This document shows positions 43,647-52,486 of a DNA stretch of 64,000 nt, in pieces. The stretch comes from Nitrosopumilaceae archaeon (GTDB lineage: Archaea > Thermoproteota > Nitrososphaeria > Nitrososphaerales > Nitrosopumilaceae). The notes under the pieces were generated by a model that was not told the origin of the DNA, ran no database searches, and was given only the letters and a program-made list of their open reading frames with translations. The position numbers and the translations under genes were made by a program. The stretch's first letter is position 1. The number at the start of each line of letters is the position of its first letter. The DNA is taken from the NCBI GenBank assembly GCA_965214835.1, contig CBDCCK010000002.1, positions 864,001-928,000 on the forward strand. Direction: 5' to 3'.

Positions 43647-44102
43647 TCAGTCAGATTGTGCATGATCGCCAAATTTCAGAAGCTCCCTTGTTTTTACAAC
43701 GAAAATGTCTGCCATTTCTACCAGTTTCTTTCCCTGAGTTTCGGATATGGTTCCTGCTTGGCCGTACAAGGATTCATTTCGGCGCAATCTCGCCTTCCTA
43801 AATGCCCGAATGACATCTTGTGGTATTTTTGCAAAATATACCACCTCGATAAACGATACCACCGCCATGTGGTGTTCGTGACTCTTTGGCCTGTATCCAC
43901 GTGAAAACATCAATGCCCTGCCGGCCTGTAGCATCGCATTGTAGGCCGCATTGTGGGCCCAGCCCCATTCTTTAATCTCCGCCATTTTTTTAGCAGAGGC
44001 GACATCACTTATTGCAATTTGTACCTCGTTTTTGACCTGCTCGGTGTCGGCAGAGCCAAACTTTTCAACCAAATTCTTTCTTAATAGATCGCTTAAATTC
44101 AT
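43647..44102 (-). CDS. HEPN domain protein
   Basis: AYNAMLQAGRALM..GYRPKSHEHH, RNESLY (Rx4Y); overlaps the MNT gene. Confidence 0.85.
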   Translation of the reverse strand: MNLSDLLRKNLVEKFGSADTEQVKNEVQIAISDVASAKKMAEIKEWGWAHNAAYNAMLQAGRALMFSRGYRPKSHEHHMAVVSFIEVVYFAKIPQDVIRAFRKARLRRNESLYGQAGTISETQGKKLVEMADIFVVKTRELLKFGDHAQSD

Positions 44103-44670
44103 TCTTGTCTCCTGCCGTCATTATTATGGGAGTCTTTAAAATTTCCCTTATCAGTGGAATCCGCTCGCTTGATTTTTGCCTGAATTCCTTTTCAGTCCAT
44201 ATTGAAATGTTGATCTCACGCCCGATATTTTTTTCAATTTTTGCAATTGAATACAGCACTGAATCCTCATTGACGTTGTCGCCGACTACCAGCATGTCCA
44301 CATCGCTTGTGGCCGTTTCCGTACCCCTTGCCACCGATCCGTATATGGCAGCGTACTTGATCCCCTCGCTGCAGTCATTACCCATCCCCTCACGTATCAC
44401 CTGTCCCACACTTTCGGTCTTGAGGAATATTCTTTTAAGATCATCCCAGATCGGAGACCTTCTCTCGGAACGGTACAGTACCATGTTTCCTTCCCTTCTG
44501 CTTTTCAGGAGACCGAGTGACTGCAGGTTGCTCAGTTCTTTTTGTGCCTGAACCGGGGAAACACCGACAACTCTTGACAGCTTGCGTATGTGGTACTCTG
44601 CATCTGGATTCAACAGAACCTGTTCAAGTATCCTTACCCTAGACTTTGATGTAAAGAGTCTCTCTAGCAT
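44065..44670 (-). CDS. wHTH + minimal nucleotidyltransferase (MNT) protein
   Basis: MLERLFTSKSRVRIL wHTH; IYGSVARG..TSDVDML. Confidence 0.88.
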   Translation of the reverse strand: MLERLFTSKSRVRILEQVLLNPDAEYHIRKLSRVVGVSPVQAQKELSNLQSLGLLKSRREGNMVLYRSERRSPIWDDLKRIFLKTESVGQVIREGMGNDCSEGIKYAAIYGSVARGTETATSDVDMLVVGDNVNEDSVLYSIAKIEKNIGREINISIWTEKEFRQKSSERIPLIREILKTPIIMTAGDKNEFKRSIKKEFG

Positions 44671-44710
44671 TGTAAACCAAACATATACAAATGTAAATAA
44701 AAAGTTTACG
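44671..44710. promoter_or_regulatory. Tandem palindromic operator candidates upstream of MNT-HEPN
   Basis: TGTAAA-N7-TATACA (44671-44689) and TGTAAA-N7-TTTACG (44692-44710). Confidence 0.55.
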
Positions 44711-44719
44711 AAAGGATCT

Positions 44720-46126
44720 CCGCAGGCGATGTCAATCCACCCTCCACAGGCTTCATAGACCTCTTTTGCCTTGATTTTGGGCTCGCCGTCCCTAGTCTGC
44801 GTTGCCTGCTCTGCACCGTACTGCCTGGCGCTGTTGGAGTGTTGCTGCCAGAGCCACTTGATGTCCTCTTCTGACTGGCCGTGTGAGAGGCCGCCGCCCT
44901 CGATGATTTTTCTGGCCTCCTTGAGCAGGAGGTTCAATATCCTAGATTTCTCCCTTGGCTCGGTAAGCTGGGCGAGCAGCTGCTTGTTGTCGGTATCGCC
45001 CCCGAATATCTCTTCAAACCTGAACAGGGCGATCCGGCACAGATCCGCTTTTTTCATCTTTGGGAGCTCCGGCAGGGCATTGTATGAAAATAGTAGCCTG
45101 CCGGTAAACGTCATTGAATAGCTGTCCTGCCCTTGTGGTGCACGTAGATGTTCTCATCGCCCATGACTGGTGACTTTCACACTCGTGGATTTTAGGGCGC
45201 CCTCCGGTAAATCATAGAAGATATTGGCGTGCTTGCCGCCCAGATTCACGGCGGCAAAGCGGTCATGCTCAAGGGCCTGCCAGGGGATTGAGCTTACGGC
45301 GCTTCTGCCAAGGATTGCCTTGAGGACTTTTAGCAAGGTGCTCTTGCCGTCATGCCTGTCGCCCTGCAATAGGCAGTACTTGGGGACGCTTACCCTATTC
45401 TGCAGCAAGACGGAGGCGCAGAACTCAGAGGGCAGCCCTAGTGTCCGGATCCGGCATTATTTCCTCTAGGAATTTCAGGAATTTGGTAGACTCGCCTGCA
45501 TCCGGGACGAAATTGACGTCAAGCTGCCTGGTACTCAAAAACGGATTGTCGGGATCCTCATCTATCTTTCTGCCGGATTCTAGGTGGACGAACTCGTTCT
45601 TACAGTTCAGCAGATTGGGATCAGAATCAAAGTCCAGCCTTGAGGCCAGCGTCCTGTCCTTGATGTGTGAGATGATCTCGGAGCGCTCGTGGTTTGTCCG
45701 TGTCGGCCACGTCTGGGTTATGGCTGCCTTGAGCTCTGCCATCTCCCTTCCTGCATAGTGATAAACGCGGTTCTGTCTCAAGTAAACCTCACCGGTCTCC
45801 TTGAGTGTGATGATGTCGCGCTTTTTTCCCGCTAGGATCTGCATTGCCGTCTTGTACGGGTCAGGCCTCTCCTCCTCTGCGGATTCCTTGGGCTTCTTTT
45901 TGGTTTTCTTCTGCTGCTCCTCCAGCTGCAGGGCTGAGGCAAGCTTGGAATGTGCCATTACAGTATGTTCTATCTGCATCTTACAGTCTGCGTGTTCTGT
46001 TCTGTCCTCCTCCTTCTTGAGGTTGATCCATTTGCCGTGAGCCAAGCAGTACCGCGCGCCGTCGTCCATCTTAACCGTCCTAGTATACTCCCGGAGGTCA
46101 TGTCCCTTCTTTCTGCAGGAGCTCAA
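44720..46126 (-). pseudogene. Fragmented phage/plasmid primase-helicase (D5/P4-like SF3)
   Basis: FDSDPNLLNCKN..VHL, FLKFLEEI, degenerate Walker A GDRHDGKSTLL, KHANIFYDL, FTGRLLFSYNALP spread over three frames. Confidence 0.75.
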
Positions 46127-47347: not shown

Positions 47348-47880
47348 CTACAGCACACTCTGTCTTCCACTCTGCCTTTTCTCTGTAACCGGCACCTGCA
47401 TGATGTTGCTGATCTGAGGCAGGTTTGGAAGCCTCCCGTCAAAATAGTCCATAATCGTGTAAATCTGAATCTTCGGATGTTCTGTACCTAGCGGCGTCTG
47501 GGTCATGCCGCCGGATGCGGCCTCCTTTTTCATTTCGGATGTGGGTTCTCTTACGCAGACAAATATGCCAAACCCCGCACCTTCGCACTCGACCGTTCCC
47601 TTGAGATCACGCACCATTGCAGGGCCTATCTGATTTCCTCCCTTTACGGAGACTATCACTTTCTCGTATTTGGGTTGTCCCCTAGAACCAGATCCTACAT
47701 GGATGTATCCCCTTCCGTCGATTCCCTTGTCCCTACCCTTCTTCTGGTTTGGCATTATGCCGTCTATCCTTGTGGCGGCCCACACCTCAAACTGGTACTT
47801 GTCACGTTTTGCCAGATCCTTTGCTGATTCGAGCGTAATCGGCATTCCCTTCACATCTGGCCTTACTCCGAATGCACTCT
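47348..47880 (-). pseudogene. C-terminal Mrr-like nuclease domain of a methylase-endonuclease fusion, 5' truncated
   Basis: DKYQFEVWA, DKGIDG, IVSVKGG, MVRDLKG, PKIQI. Confidence 0.7.
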
Positions 47881-48067
47881 TCATGCGACGGTGCACTGGA
47901 CGGCCAGACCCCGGCAGAATCGGCCCTGATAAGCGTGGACGGCACAAACAAGTGGATGACGATAATCCAGAACGCCTCACTAAGTAAAAATTCAGCCTAG
48001 TCGTAAAAATCGAATCTGAAGAAGATCCATATTTCAGGTCTCGAAGATTACACAGAACCCAGGCATG

Positions 48068-49211
48068 TGGGATCCGAAAAGTAGTTCACCCCCCCTATCT
48101 GACATGATATTCCTCCCTGGTCTGCCCATCTATGACCGTTTCGCCCGCAGGGGGCATCTTGCGCTCATATGCCTGCGCCGGCGTCTCCCGGTTCTCCCGG
48201 TCAAGGGACATGTGGGGCCTGTCGTAGTTGTACCATTTCATGAACAGATCCATGGGATCGCTTGTTCTCATCATGATATCCTCAAACTCGTGCAGCTTGC
48301 GCTGTATCTCGCCGTGCAGCCTCTCGACCTTGCCGTTTGTCTGCGGGTGGCGCACCCCGGCAAGGACCTGCCGTATGCCTAGGGCCTCCAGGCTCTCCTC
48401 GAACTCGCTGTGCCCCCTCTTTGCGCCCTGTTTTTCGTTTGCATAGAACTGGCTTCCGTGGTCCGTCATTATGGAGGCGGGCCTGCCGTGCTTCTGCATG
48501 GCCCCGTCAAGCACCTTGAGGGCGTTTTCTGTAGTCGCGTTGTCAAATATGCCGTATCCGGTCACGAACCGGGATGCGTCGTCCTCGTAGCACAAAAACC
48601 ACCTGCCATCGTGCATTCCGCCGTGTATCTGCTTCCAATCGGTGTGCCACATGGAGTTGGAATACTCCATCTCCCAGCGCAGCCACCTGCGTTTTCTGCG
48701 CCCGTTGGGCTCGTCTCTGGCCATCCCTTCGTCCTTTAGCATGCCGTGCAGTGTATGTCGCGGGATATTAATCCCGGTCTTTTCCCTTATGAGATCCTGC
48801 AGGGATGCCGCACCCAGGTGCTCGGAGGGTCGCACCGAGAGGACCGCCGAGTGCTCCCTGCGCCCGGGCATGCCGTTCTGGGGCCTTCCCATCCGTGCGG
48901 GGTGCGATATGTCCTGTATGGTGCCTGACCTGTGCCGGGCCCACAGTTTCTGTACCCAGCGGACCGAGACGTTCATGGATTCGGCTATCTGGGCGTTTGT
49001 CATGTCTCCCTTTTGCTTTTGGCGTACTATCCACTGTACGCCTGACTTGTTTAGATTCATGTTGTTGGGGCGTGCAAGACTGACGTATTTACCAGCCCTT
49101 TTGCGCCAGACCCACACACCCTTGTTTCCAGTGGCATGCATGAGGCCCGTGCATCTGATCCTTACCGACTTTACACCCTCGGAGAAGGGGTGAACTACTT
49201 TTTGGATTATA
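48068..49211 (-). mobile_element. IS481-family element (transposase about 48095-49060)
   Basis: WHTDWK, DDASR, TDHGSQF, HPQTNGKVERLH, YNYDRPH; ends ATCC.AAAAGTAGTTCACCCC inverted. Confidence 0.88.
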
Positions 49212-50253
49212 GATCGCACCATCACCGGTGTCCTCCTCCATCCATTTTGGGTTGCTTTTCCTGATCGCATCTGTGGCCTCCCTGTCGGAGAATGCTCGCA
49301 GCGGCGTCTCGTAGTTGTCTATATCCAGCGACCAGTGCAGCCTGTCCTCGTTGTAGTAGCCTATGTATGCAGACAGGCTCTCGTGGTTCCATATCTCCTC
49401 CTCGATGCTCCGATGGAAGCGTTCCAGCTTGCCGTTGGTCTGTGGGTGGTACGGCCTGGAGTTTATCAGCTCGATTCCGCAGTTGAGCAGCTCCTCCTCA
49501 AAGGCAGTGGGCCTCCACACGCCCTTGGGCGGACTCTTCTTTTTCTTTGGATCCGAGCGCGCCCCGACAAAGCACTTGCCGTTGTCTGATAAAATGGTTG
49601 CAGGCGCGCCGAACTGGGCCACGGCCTGCCGCAGGACCGCCACGACGTTCTCCGAGGTGGCCTCCCTGAACAGGCCCGCACCGGTCACGCACCGGGACGA
49701 ATCGTCCAGAAACGTGACTAGGTTGAGCCCTACAAAGCGCGGATCCTTCATGGTATGCCAGTCCACGTGCCACATGGCGTTGGAGTACCTGCGCTCAAAG
49801 CGGACGTATTTCCGGGGTCTGGATTTTGCAGGCGACGGCGTCACCAGCCCGTGCTCACTCATTATCCTGTATACCTCGCAGTAGCTTATATCGTGTTGTC
49901 TTCGCAGCCTCCTGGCCGTATGAACAACGCCTGCTGCACTGTGCTTGTGCTCCTCTAGGACGGCGCGCACGACACTGTCGGGAACCGGGGCGTTCCTTTT
50001 TCTTCCCGGCCTGAGCGGCACGTGGTGCGCACCACCCGTCTTCCTGAACCGGGCGTACATCCGCTGGACGTGTCTTTTTGTGACGCCTATCTCGGCGGCC
50101 ACCTCCGAGGGCCTTCGTCCCTTGGCACACTGCGTTACTGCGTATCTGATCTGCCTTGCCTTGAGCCTTGCAACCATCGGCTTTCTTGATCGGTAAAGCC
50201 TAAAGTAATCCTTTGCAATCCTCTTCAAATTAGTGCGATCTAATTTTCGTACA
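49212..50253 (-). mobile_element. Second IS481-family element (transposase from about 50177), distal end disrupted by the neighbouring IS481
   Basis: WHVDWH, DDSSR, SDNG, HPQTNGKLERFH; end TGCGATCTAATTTTCGTACA, with only AGATCGCA left at the other end. Confidence 0.85.
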
Positions 50254-50322
50254 ATAGAGATGTTGGGCATTGGCATGATTTTAGTTCAATTCAATATATT
50301 ACAGAAGGCAAAGAATGACAAC

Positions 50323-50409
50323 GATAGCGTTAGGGTACCGGTATGCCCTGCCGAGCTCAGACCTCGGTGGCGCCGACACACCATAGGGGTTCGAATCCCC
50401 TCGCTATCG
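50323..50409 (+). tRNA. Atypical class II tRNA with CAG anticodon (nominal tRNA-Leu; amino acid identity uncertain)
   Basis: GATAGCG/CGCTATC acceptor, AGGGTA/TGCCCT D-stem, CCGAG-CTCAGAC-CTCGG anticodon arm, long variable arm, AGGGG-TTCGAAT-CCCCT T-arm. Confidence 0.85.
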
Positions 50410-50466
50410 CTATAATCTACTGGAGATGTTTCTTATAAAAAAGGTTGGGTTTGGGCGGTTTGTAAG

Positions 50467-52237
50467 GTACGAGGTCACCTACCCCCATCAATCAGGCACG
50501 AATTAGATGCATGATTGTGATCTTCGTGCCTAGCTGGCAGCCCCCGTCAATGATCTTGTCCCCTTCAAGCGCAATCCATGGACTGCAGGCCTGAATTTTT
50601 TCACGGATTGTGTAGATCTGCCGTACGAGGTCACCTACCCCTAGATTATTTTGGCTACCTCAGCCACGATGGACTTGTCCTGCAGCTTCCACGTCGACGT
50701 GCATGTGTTGAACCATCCATACCTGTTCATCCAGACCAGGCCGCCCTTGATCTGACCGCTTATCTTGCCCTGCAGTACGACGGGGCGCAGCGCCCGCTCT
50801 GCGTTATTGTTGGTGGGCTCTACGCCCTCGTATTCCAAGAACGCAAACAGGCCCGGCAGGGCATTGTACATCCTCTTGACAAGGGACTTTAGCGATTCAT
50901 CCTACGTATCCCTGTATCCGAACAGGATGTTGCGCATCATGGTCTCAAACAGCCGGCGCAGCTCCGGCGAGTGCCGTCCCATCAGTCCGTCGGCCGCCCT
51001 TATCCCCGTCCTCTCCTCGAGCTCCCGGAGATCCTTCTCGGACAGCTTGTCCCAGCCCTCAAGACACTCCTTGGCATCCTTGAACAGCTGCTGCATCTGC
51101 CGGTACAGGACTCCTGCAAACAGCAGGGCGCCCTTTTTCTGCGAGCCATACAGGAGGAACCGCAGCTCGTGCGCCCAGCACCGCTGGAGCCTTCCCAGCA
51201 GCCCGAACCTCTTGTATGCGGGATATCCGTCCGATGTGACGATGCCCCCGTACCCGCCCATGTACTGGTCCAGGATCCGGGCGCTCCTGGTGTCTGCATA
51301 TATCATGAACACGCCCACCGCCGACAGCATGGCCCACGCCCATCCCAGCCTGCCTGCCAGGTTGATCCCCGTCTCGTCTATGCAGACGGTCTTTGAGCTT
51401 CTTACCTCCTCTGCGATGGCCTCGGCAGGCGCCTTTGCGGCGTCGCAGACGCGTCCCATGCTGTTGATTGCAGTTGACTTTGACATGTGCACGCCCAGGA
51501 TATCTGACATGACGCCCCGGATCCTGTTGTATGGGACGCCCTCGCTGCGCAGCTTTGTGACGGCTGTGACTATACTCGTGTCGTAGCTGCCGCGTCGGGG
51601 CAGGTCGTTGGGGGCAGTATGTATGGTGCCGCATTTCGGGCACACTGCCCTCTGTGTCTCGTGGCGCGTCTCAGTCGTCTTTATCTTGAATCCTATCATG
51701 TCGCGCACCTGCGGCTTTTTCATGATCTCTGTGGTGGTGCCGCAACTGCACTCCGGCGCCCGTCCCCCCGGAAAGCAGTGTTTCTGTACCCTGGCGGGCC
51801 GGTGGGTGCGCGATACGCCCTTGTGGCCCTTCTGGCCGCCGGGCTTTTTCCTGTCCCCCTTGGCGCCGTCATTTCCTGCTGCAGCATCGGACCTGGCCCT
51901 CTCCCTTCTCCTCTGCGCCTTTTGCCTCTTCCACTCCAGCGAGTCTGCCGACGGGGGCGAGTTCTCGTTCTCGTAGTATCGGAGCCTGTTGCCCTGCTCC
52001 CTGATGGTCTTGTTTAGCTTTTCGATTATCTTGTCCTTCTTTTCGATTATCTTGTCACGCTCCTTGAGGTCCTTTTTTAGATTCCTTATCGTCTCCGTGG
52101 GCGATGCTGCAGATGCCTCGATCTTGCAGCATGTGAGGAGTTGACCTTTCATAATGCCTAGTCTACGCGATCATAGTATAAGGATCAGGTACAGTCAGTA
52201 ATGTTTACCCTACTGTGAGGGGTAGGTGACCTCATAC
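50467..52237 (-). mobile_element. IS66-family (single-ORF, ISBst12-like) element with extended end; transposase 50641-52152 has one in-frame TAG
   Basis: TIR GTACGAGGTCACCTACCCC (50467 and 50623) / GGGGTAGGTGACCTCATAC; 8-bp TSD TTTGTAAG; NSPPS.D, GGQKGHKG, DETG, SDGYPAY, QRCWAH, PTNNNAERALR. Confidence 0.9.
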
Positions 52238-52245
52238 TTTGTAAG

Positions 52246-52486
52246 AGTTTACCTCTCCCCAGAGATACGGCGTGGCAGGCGTGATCATGAAGGCTCCGAC
52301 TAGCAGTGTAGCCTGGGGGTAAACTCTTACGGGCAGTTTACCATTAACGGTTAACGCCGGAATCGCCCCAGATCCTGCCAGAACCGAGCGCAGCAGGGCG
52401 GACTTGGGCATCTTGGCCTTGTGTGCAGCCGCGTCCAGAGCGTCCCACTCCTTGAGGATCAGCGGCATGCTTGCCCTTTTTGCCAT
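52246..52486 (-). CDS. Small ribbon-helix-helix-like protein (possibly a remnant)
   Basis: MAKRASMPLILKEWDALDAAAHKAKMPKSALLRSVL pattern; homologous fragment at ~19570-19625. Confidence 0.4.

Follow-up and report, generated by a model that had tools for sequence, protein, structure and literature searches.

What role can a tRNA gene play when it carries the anticodon for the commonest leucine codon of its genome, on a body unlike that of the genome's leucine tRNAs? The question is raised by a tRNA-type gene with a Leu (CAG) anticodon and a guanine at the discriminator position (G73), which lies in a stretch of 64,000 nucleotides (the window, C2:864001-928000 of the 3.22-Mb genome G000 of a Nitrosopumilaceae archaeon, 52.6% G+C). 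An earlier note, made from the sequence alone, had suggested that the RNA may be charged with serine and insert it at some CUG codons. We arrive at a different reading: the locus encodes a genuine surplus tRNA-shaped RNA, a diverged paralogue within a family of such genes, and is most likely weak or decaying and not an active CUG recoder. We give this reading a probability of roughly 55%.

The gene itself is well supported. ARAGORN reports tRNA-Leu(cag) at 50323-50410, and the Rfam tRNA model (RF00005) scores the locus at 37.8 bits, above the gathering score of 29 (E 1.1e-6 for a 331-base stretch, E 2.6e-6 for the whole genome). A search of the whole window at the gathering score missed it, which we attribute to loss in the speed filter, as the local search scores above that value. 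A covariance model of the family (R1, see below) scores the window copy at 64.5 bits. The complete cloverleaf with CAG anticodon and G73, and the TATA-like tract upstream of it, are as the earlier note described them; the tract would act as a promoter. The minimum-free-energy fold (z -2.68) keeps the acceptor, anticodon and T arms and pairs the D region with the variable region. C50322 is able to pair with G50409 (position -1 with 73). The same pair is possible in canonical tRNAs of this genome too and so gives no evidence for the 8-bp acceptor stem that had been proposed as an alternative; it would make the branch 8/5, not 8/4.

The window tRNA is not the cell's CUG decoder. G000 has an ordinary tRNA set plus extras (ARAGORN, Rfam), and a check for a separate canonical tRNA-Leu(CAG) found one (Table 1). 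That gene has A73 and G37, and its body matches that of Leu(GAG) and Leu(UAG). The window tRNA is thus surplus and not the sole CAG isoacceptor. CUG is the commonest leucine codon (46% of Leu codons, 37 per 1000, in 523 open reading frames (ORFs) of at least 400 amino acids). The genome encodes one seryl-tRNA synthetase (SerRS), of bacterial type, and one leucyl-tRNA synthetase (LeuRS). PSTK was not found in G000 (best score 25 bits versus a cut-off of 290) and SepSecS gave no match there. With a single SerRS, a single LeuRS and neither PSTK nor SepSecS found, a dedicated synthetase or a selenocysteine (Sec) type pathway was rejected.

A search for homologues and covariation, as the earlier note had advised, placed the gene in a family of 23 genes from 9 Nitrosopumilaceae genomes. 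Its members are class-II-like and carry G73; they combine the canonical 7/5 acceptor/T branch with a D-stem of 4 bp and a long variable arm, and have a TATA-like tract of their own. Five of them are paralogues in G000 (family A; identified by BLAST and as ARAGORN long calls) that have G73, a variable arm of 9 bp and nearly identical bodies of 95 nt. Identity between the window copy and family A is about 69%, and the two have flanks in common, namely the TATA-like tract upstream and TATAAAAAAG about 25 nt downstream. BLAST searches with family A (41 genomes) and with the window copy (201 genomes) gave matches only in G000 and G002, so a covariance model was needed to reach other genera. This model (R1), built from six sequences and run over 150 relatives (G095 only in tally), scored at least 47 bits in seven genomes: G000, G002, G106 (7 copies), G089 (4, including a tandem pair), G062, G050 and G078. 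No canonical Ser(GCU) or Leu tRNA exceeded 45 bits. A GAA copy in G091 scored 42.6 bits, yet has the same acceptor stem as family A and G050. A UAG copy in a 2.8-Mb genome came from a pattern scan that covered one genome per species and also recovered the G002 contig. Two exact-match patterns gave 0 family matches in viral contigs and 0 in metagenome contigs, blanks to which the exactness of the patterns leaves little weight. The family duplicates within genomes that are mostly large, five of the nine measuring 2.8-3.9 Mb; the load of insertion sequences (IS) was examined in G000 only. Orthologues of the canonical Leu(CAG), with 91-94% identity, occur in 5/5 other family-bearing genomes tested, and the family is therefore surplus in those genomes too.

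The fold of the family is under selection. For 19 of the 23 genes, aligned to the model (alignment A3; the G002 copy, which is identical to the 1826707 copy, the two D-arm-deleted copies and G089b were excluded), 98.7% of cells are paired, 22 of 30 pairs show double changes and 0/500 shuffles were as high, although the pair counts are inflated by an alignment that was fitted to the model structure. Controls with slid partners gave 37-56% paired cells for the same 19 members. Compared with family A, the window copy has 98.6% of cells paired and 3 double compensatory pairs (1/500 shuffles as high), and no pair is broken in its acceptor, D, anticodon or T stems. Among the four distinct sequences of family A, variable columns make up 2/60 of the stems, 1/22 of the other unpaired positions, 3/6 of the variable-arm loop and 4/7 of the anticodon loop.

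The anticodon loop retains a shape of the decoding type. Among the 23 genes (19 from the alignment, the other 4 read individually), a pyrimidine at position 32 is found in 23/23, U33 in 22/23, A35 in 23/23 and a purine at position 37 in 23/23; G73 is present in 22/23. All four bases occur at position 34 and three at position 36, giving the anticodons CAG (4 genes), UAG (4), GAG (2), AAG (2), GAU (8) and GAA (3). Anticodon changes are frequent and confined to NAN triplets, which correspond to Leu CUN, Ile AUY and Phe UUY codons.

The window copy has lost part of what characterizes its relatives. Its variable region forms at most 4 pairs around a C.A mismatch, is depicted as unpaired by ARAGORN, and in alignments A2 and A3 covers no more than a portion of family A's 9-bp arm. 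In a contig from another study's run (X6), the locus is about 95% identical and lacks the IS at 50258-50260; the contig diverges at 50260. Relative to the window it lacks 8 further bases of the variable region, at 50376, and it has a T>C change at 50295, inside the TATA-like tract. Two more substitutions and an inserted TTT lie upstream, which makes 3 substitutions and one insertion within the 63 upstream bases. The view that the gene is intact and hence selected holds for the four core stems, which are kept by compensatory changes, and fails for the variable arm, which is degraded here and shortened further in the sister strain, where the TATA-like tract is altered as well. Other members have also decayed, namely the two G000 copies with D-arm deletions and G106g, with C33 and T73. 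Together with the window copy, they suggest birth-and-death turnover of the family.

To which isotype the body belongs was assessed with sequence-only nhmmer profiles (not tRNAscan-SE isotype models) based on 11 Ser and 6 Leu tRNAs from four congeneric genomes. The window copy scored 10.7 bits with the Ser profile and 5.0 bits with the Leu profile, versus 63-76 and 6-25 bits for canonical Ser tRNAs, and 20-29 and 78-94 bits for canonical Leu tRNAs. Its dissimilarity to the genome's tRNA-Leu, pointed out earlier, is thus borne out, while the Ser-like body that had been proposed is not. The canonical Leu tRNAs seen in the genome and its relatives all have A73, and a Leu body has a 3-bp D-stem with a long D-loop; the window copy has G73 and a D-stem of 4-6 bp. 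It shares G73 with Ser tRNAs, and lacks an NGA or GCU anticodon, likeness to the Ser profile and the G30:C40 pair, having A:U at 30:40. A37, which had been regarded as anomalous, also accompanies CAG or UAG in canonical A73 Leu tRNAs of relatives (L085, L090, L091).

Two other identities were rejected, and with them the earlier comparison to Sec or allo-tRNA bodies. Against a tRNA-Sec stand the 7/5 branch, the CAG anticodon in place of UCA, the failure to find PSTK and SepSecS in G000, and the confinement of the 6-bp D-stem to this one copy, the 18 relatives in A3 being aligned to a stem of 4 bp. Against an allo-tRNA stand the 7-bp acceptor stem and 5-bp T-stem, which covary as such in 19 members. 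The gene does fall among variable-arm tRNAs with a mismatched anticodon, a functional grouping that implies no common descent with the nematode genes of this kind. Intact members are nearer to the Ser type in architecture: they have G73 and a 4-bp D-stem, the loop that follows G18-G19 is short, and the variable stem is preceded by one unpaired base and followed by two. The G062 member alone leans towards Ser(GCU) in core-column identity (maximum 0.74 versus 0.67).

Published identity rules suggest how such RNAs would be charged. According to passages of one review (PMC9976931), leucine identity in archaea is set by A73 and the variable arm, the G73 found in tRNA-Ser acts as an antideterminant for the LeuRS of Haloferax volcanii, both archaeal and bacterial-type SerRS have G73 as a strong determinant, and serine identity is independent of the anticodon. 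If these rules apply, G73 would bar charging by LeuRS and, with the long variable arm, would admit the single bacterial-type SerRS, which would ignore the anticodon. Intact members would then be seryl-tRNAs that read Leu, Ile and Phe codons as serine. As these codons are common, the cell could tolerate such tRNAs only if they were scarce, active under certain conditions, kept off the ribosome or otherwise employed outside elongation. The window copy, with most of its variable-arm pairing lost and its place in an IS-ridden island, would be poorly charged if charged at all, and its activity is presumably low.

Several observations weigh against this reading. Serylation is deduced from the rules of other organisms, and the window copy has A:U at 30:40 instead of the G:C that helps SerRS. 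Family A gave no match at all to the Ser profile, and identity of the window copy over 68 core columns is 0.51 to Ser(GCU), 0.56 to other Ser and 0.52 to Leu tRNAs, values that do not separate the groups. The inflation of the pair counts in A3, mentioned above, has to be borne in mind as well. In small genomes the members sit among housekeeping genes, which argues for a maintained function and not for mobile junk. For the window copy itself, no substitution is listed in the rest of the X6 tRNA body, so it could still be constrained, and its four fully intact core stems leave room for residual function. The main unexplained feature is the invariant A35, which charging by SerRS does not predict and which fits better an amino acid or partner that cares about hydrophobic codons. 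Its constancy could reflect a partner that reads A35, selection on the codon boxes touched, or in part chance: given that positions 34 and 36 together have undergone at least 8 substitutions and position 35 not one, a rough estimate, which is not a computed test, is (2/3)^8 ~ 0.04.

Among the alternatives, an active Ser-accepting tRNA that puts serine at some CUG codons, like the tRNA-Ser(CAG) of CUG-clade yeasts, survives best, and we still consider it unlikely. It would account for G73 and the 17-nt variable region, for the retention of U33 and a 7-nt anticodon loop, for the promoter-like tract and for core stems held by compensatory change, and the published rules (SerRS indifferent to the anticodon, LeuRS blocked by G73) would permit it. 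However, the variable arm pairs weakly and is further deleted in the sister strain, 30:40 is A:U, and the Ser profile score is far from that of true Ser tRNAs. Appreciable activity would also be costly, as CUG is so common and the canonical Leu(CAG) competes, and BLAST found no orthologue of the window copy in 200 other Nitrosopumilaceae genomes.

Slightly more doubtful still is a role outside translation, in which the RNAs would counter tRNA-cutting toxins as decoys or spare parts, or have a regulatory function linked to toxin-antitoxin systems or mobile DNA; such roles have been proposed for inactive allo-tRNAs of Acidobacteria. The setting is suggestive, as the island holds a HEPN/nucleotidyltransferase pair, D5_N and restriction-enzyme fragments and three IS copies, and several family copies in G000 abut IS66 elements. 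A similar association, and members inactive in translation, are described for allo-tRNAs in passages of PMC5389517. A second surplus family of class-I tRNAs in G000 has AAG, GAG and GAA anticodons too, which would suit a threat aimed at tRNAs with A35. No toxin of known tRNA specificity is linked to any copy, though, and the housekeeping surroundings of the small-genome members speak against such a role. The conserved loop shape (Y32-U33...R37) is the one that decoding requires, even if a nuclease decoy would need the same shape.

We regard it as quite improbable that the gene is an extra tRNA-Leu(CAG) charged by LeuRS and the family a set of correctly charged extra Leu, Ile and Phe decoders: 12 of the 23 anticodons are Leu CUN, A35 keeps members in hydrophobic codon boxes, IleRS and PheRS (the synthetases for Ile and Phe) read the anticodon, and nematode nev-tRNAs show, in passages of PMC3333845, that variable-arm tRNAs with odd anticodons can be Leu-charged, but 22 of the 23 members have G73 whereas the canonical Leu tRNAs encountered all have A73, LeuRS is blocked by G73 in the only archaeal system examined, the Leu profile gives the window copy 5.0 bits, the 4-bp D-stem and short loop differ from the Leu-type 3-bp stem and long loop, and archaeal Phe identity uses A73 (passages of PMC9976931).

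The positions of the gene, its relatives and its surroundings are collected in Table 1.

Table 1. Features of the tRNA locus, its neighbourhood and related genes (positions without a contig or locus name refer to the window; empty cells, nothing reported)
Feature	Position	Strand	Evidence or remark
tRNA-type gene, G1 to discriminator G73	50323-50409	+	ARAGORN, Rfam tRNA, family covariance model R1, compensatory pairs
Acceptor stem, 7 bp	50323-50329 with 50402-50408	+	G50409 next, position 73
D-arm	50332-50349	+	4-bp core, extendable to 6 bp
Anticodon stem, 5 bp	50351-50355 with 50363-50367	+	plus G50350 opposite U50368
Anticodon CAG	50358-50360	+	loop CUCAGAC; U33, A37
Variable region, 17 nt	50368-50384	+	degraded counterpart of the relatives' 8-9-bp variable arm (alignments A2, A3)
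T-arm	50385-50401	+	5 bp, TTCGAAT loop
TATA-like AT-rich tract AATATATTA	50293-50301	+	-30 to -22 from first tRNA base; counterpart conserved upstream of paralogues
Conserved 3' flank with motif TATAAAAAAG (50434-50443)	50410-50447	+	common to paralogues; similar TTATAAAA motif after genus-g2 copies
rve-type IS copy, end abuts tRNA promoter region	49089-50258	-	several genome copies end at window 50258 (BLAST); Pfam rve E 1.1e-13
MITE-like repeat, ~74 nt, two copies	50467-50540, 50548-50622		>150 BLAST matches genome-wide; between tRNA unit and IS66 copy
IS66-family element	50623-52200 (right end approximate)	-	transposase ORF 50902-52152; repeat boundary 50623; Pfam DDE_Tnp_IS66 E 6.4e-23
Small ORF, 84 amino acids, convergent with tRNA	52232-52486	-	tblastn 76% identity over 38 amino acids to stretch beside paralogue C2:1090321
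HEPN + nucleotidyltransferase (MNT-type) gene pair	43650-45114	-	Pfam
D5_N primase fragment	45428-46126	-	Pfam
Mrr_cat/NA-iREase1 restriction-enzyme fragment	47351-47980	-	Pfam
Canonical tRNA-Leu(CAG)	C2:1091389-1091474		A73, G37
SerRS, bacterial type	C2:472011-473252		sole copy in G000
LeuRS	C2:300598-303447		sole copy in G000
Family A, GAU	C2:1826707-1826801	+	
Family A, CAG	C2:c2887469-2887563 (locus label c2887467)	complement	
Family A, GAA	C2:c1090322-1090416 (locus label c1090321)	complement	between dnaK-dnaJ and canonical tRNA-Leu(CAG)/gatE-gatD; housekeeping surroundings
Family A, GAU	C2:182875-182968	+	part of D-arm deleted
Family A, GAU	C2:1824008-1824095	+	part of D-arm deleted
140-amino-acid ORF	L017:8080-8502, equal to G000 C2:1826079-1826498	+ (L017)	no Pfam or NCBIfam match
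140-amino-acid ORF, diverged paralogues	C2:2888095-2887775, 175052-175468, 2918140-2917940, 188031-187840		
Surplus G73 tRNAs, G000	C2:c381279-381363; 702318-702405; c148334-148418; 2806142-2806225		UAU; GAA; CCU; GAA
Surplus G73 tRNAs, relatives	G004 L033, L037; G001 L049, L051; G229 L075		UAU, GAA; GAG, UUC; GUG
Second surplus family, G000	C2:c66617-66687; 2756709-2756779; 3019690-3019760; 2234423-2234493		AAG; AAG; GAG; GAA; Rfam tRNA 59-62 bits
tRNA-Val(CAC) with extra stem-loop	G000 C2:c2048555-2048647; G004 L039; G001 L046		~20 nt, after anticodon arm

The window gene lies between IS elements, as first noted, within an island (43.6-52.5 kb) that is flanked by housekeeping genes according to a Pfam scan. 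The HEPN/MNT pair and the D5_N and Mrr_cat fragments look like remnants of an integrated element beside the tRNA. The idea that the tRNA served as an integration site was dropped, as BLAST found no partial duplicate of its 3' half in the window or the rest of the genome. The first ~21 bases of the repeats that resemble miniature inverted-repeat transposable elements (MITE) match the end of IS66 copies. Beyond these insertions lies the 84-amino-acid ORF, which probably was the neighbour of the tRNA before the IS and MITE insertions. Pfam and NCBIfam searches with it gave no match, and to the eye of the analyst only it resembles a ribbon-helix-helix protein. The 3' motif TATAAAAAAG could be a terminator for this convergent ORF, or a second promoter.

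Some further observations concern individual family members. Two family A copies are immediately preceded, within a shared unit of about 730 bp, by an ORF of 140 amino acids that has a hydrophobic segment at its N terminus. The tandem pair in G089 (L066, C1:405785-408877) is adjacent to a gene with an archaeal ThrRS (threonyl-tRNA synthetase) editing domain, and the G078 copy (L069, C19:2442-5031) to a gene for ValRS (valyl-tRNA synthetase); each is a single case and may be due to chance. Most members from genus g2 (G106 and G089; L093-L103) have A at position 8 in place of the conserved U8.

Other unusual tRNAs were encountered outside the modelled family. G000 and its relatives have additional surplus G73 tRNAs with long variable arms and non-serine anticodons, most of them with a serine-type D-arm; except for L049, they lean towards Ser (18-37 bits) over Leu (8-25 bits) on the profiles. 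The second surplus family of G000 consists of 71-nt class-I tRNAs with an acceptor start GGGCC, a conserved upstream region, A73 and a 31:39 mismatch; A35 is present in this family as well. Three genomes of the genus have a tRNA-Val(CAC) with an extra stem-loop, probably a non-canonical intron. In G004, a tRNA-Ser(UGA) (L032) with a D-arm unlike that of the lineage's Ser tRNAs exists besides the canonical L038, and may be foreign.

How does the family compare with known systems? With tRNA-Sec it has G73 and a long variable arm in common, and initial serylation by SerRS is a tRNA-Sec feature; but archaeal tRNA-Sec has a 9/4 branch, a 6-bp D-stem and a UCA anticodon and needs PSTK and SepSecS, none of which holds here. 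Some tRNA-ProX genes of Streptomyces and Kitasatospora are accompanied by a dedicated synthetase paralogue; in contrast, no extra SerRS or LeuRS was found in G000. In CUG-clade yeasts, tRNA-Ser(CAG) combines a CAG anticodon with a body that has a serine-type discriminator, and it is the main or established decoder, to which CUG usage across the proteome has adapted. Here, by contrast, CUG is the commonest leucine codon, the canonical Leu(CAG) is kept and the copy looks degraded. The likeness to these yeasts, and to the competing Ser and Leu tRNAs of Ascoidea (PMC6041473), lies in a possible ambiguous reading of CUG beside a Leu tRNA. The tRNA-ProX genes likewise combine one identity set with anticodons of other amino acids, but are bacterial, of Pro type and class I (passages of PMC11415595).

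Closer parallels come from two other groups. Bacterial allo-tRNAs are known from Acidobacteria, Clostridia and Proteobacteria and have a 12-bp branch, divided 8/4 or 9/3 (Mukai et al. 2017, PMC5389517, in part). They resemble our family in being surplus, in their long variable arm and serine-type identity elements, in diverse non-serine anticodons that include Leu and Ile, in the occurrence of pseudogene copies, in links to transposable elements and toxin-antitoxin systems, and in that some members are active in translation and some are not. They differ in domain and branch, the present family being archaeal and 7/5, with anticodons limited to NAN. The nematode nev-tRNAs share the class II variable arm, the mismatch between anticodon and body identity, the restriction to a lineage and the multiple copies (Hamashima et al. 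2012, PMC3333845, in part); unlike our genes they are, in the same passages, Leu-derived and Leu-charged with Gly or Ile anticodons, whereas here G73 prevails and the anticodon of the window copy is itself that of Leu. A full-text literature search, which missed most subscription journals, found no archaeal precedent for such tRNAs. As far as that search goes, the family of odd tRNAs in ammonia-oxidising archaea is previously undescribed, with bacterial allo-tRNAs and nematode nev-tRNAs as its nearest analogues.

The single locus is of modest interest, the family of considerable interest. Natural tRNAs in which body and anticodon do not match are raw material for changes of the genetic code, and also a chassis for code engineering. 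So far, examples come from bacteria (allo-tRNA, tRNA-ProX) and from eukaryotes (nev-tRNA, CUG-clade yeasts); a family in archaea would add the third domain. With its canonical 7/5 branch, strong covariation across genera and A35-limited anticodons, the family would offer a clean test of archaeal Ser/Leu identity rules, and it raises the question why only hydrophobic codon boxes are sampled. For genome annotation it matters that anticodon-based callers will name these genes tRNA-Leu, -Ile or -Phe, and inflate the apparent decoding sets. For the cell, the family might mistranslate hydrophobic codons. A far-reaching possibility, to which we assign a small share of probability, is that some Nitrosopumilaceae own a dedicated set of serine-type tRNAs with G73 and a long variable arm that reads hydrophobic NUN codons (Leu CUN, Ile AUY, Phe UUY). 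This would be a natural, probably conditional ambiguity of sense codons in Archaea, in which gene copies rapidly exchange one anticodon for another. Alternatively, charging may follow a so far unrecognised route for which A35 is needed. In this scenario the window gene would be one fading copy of the set.

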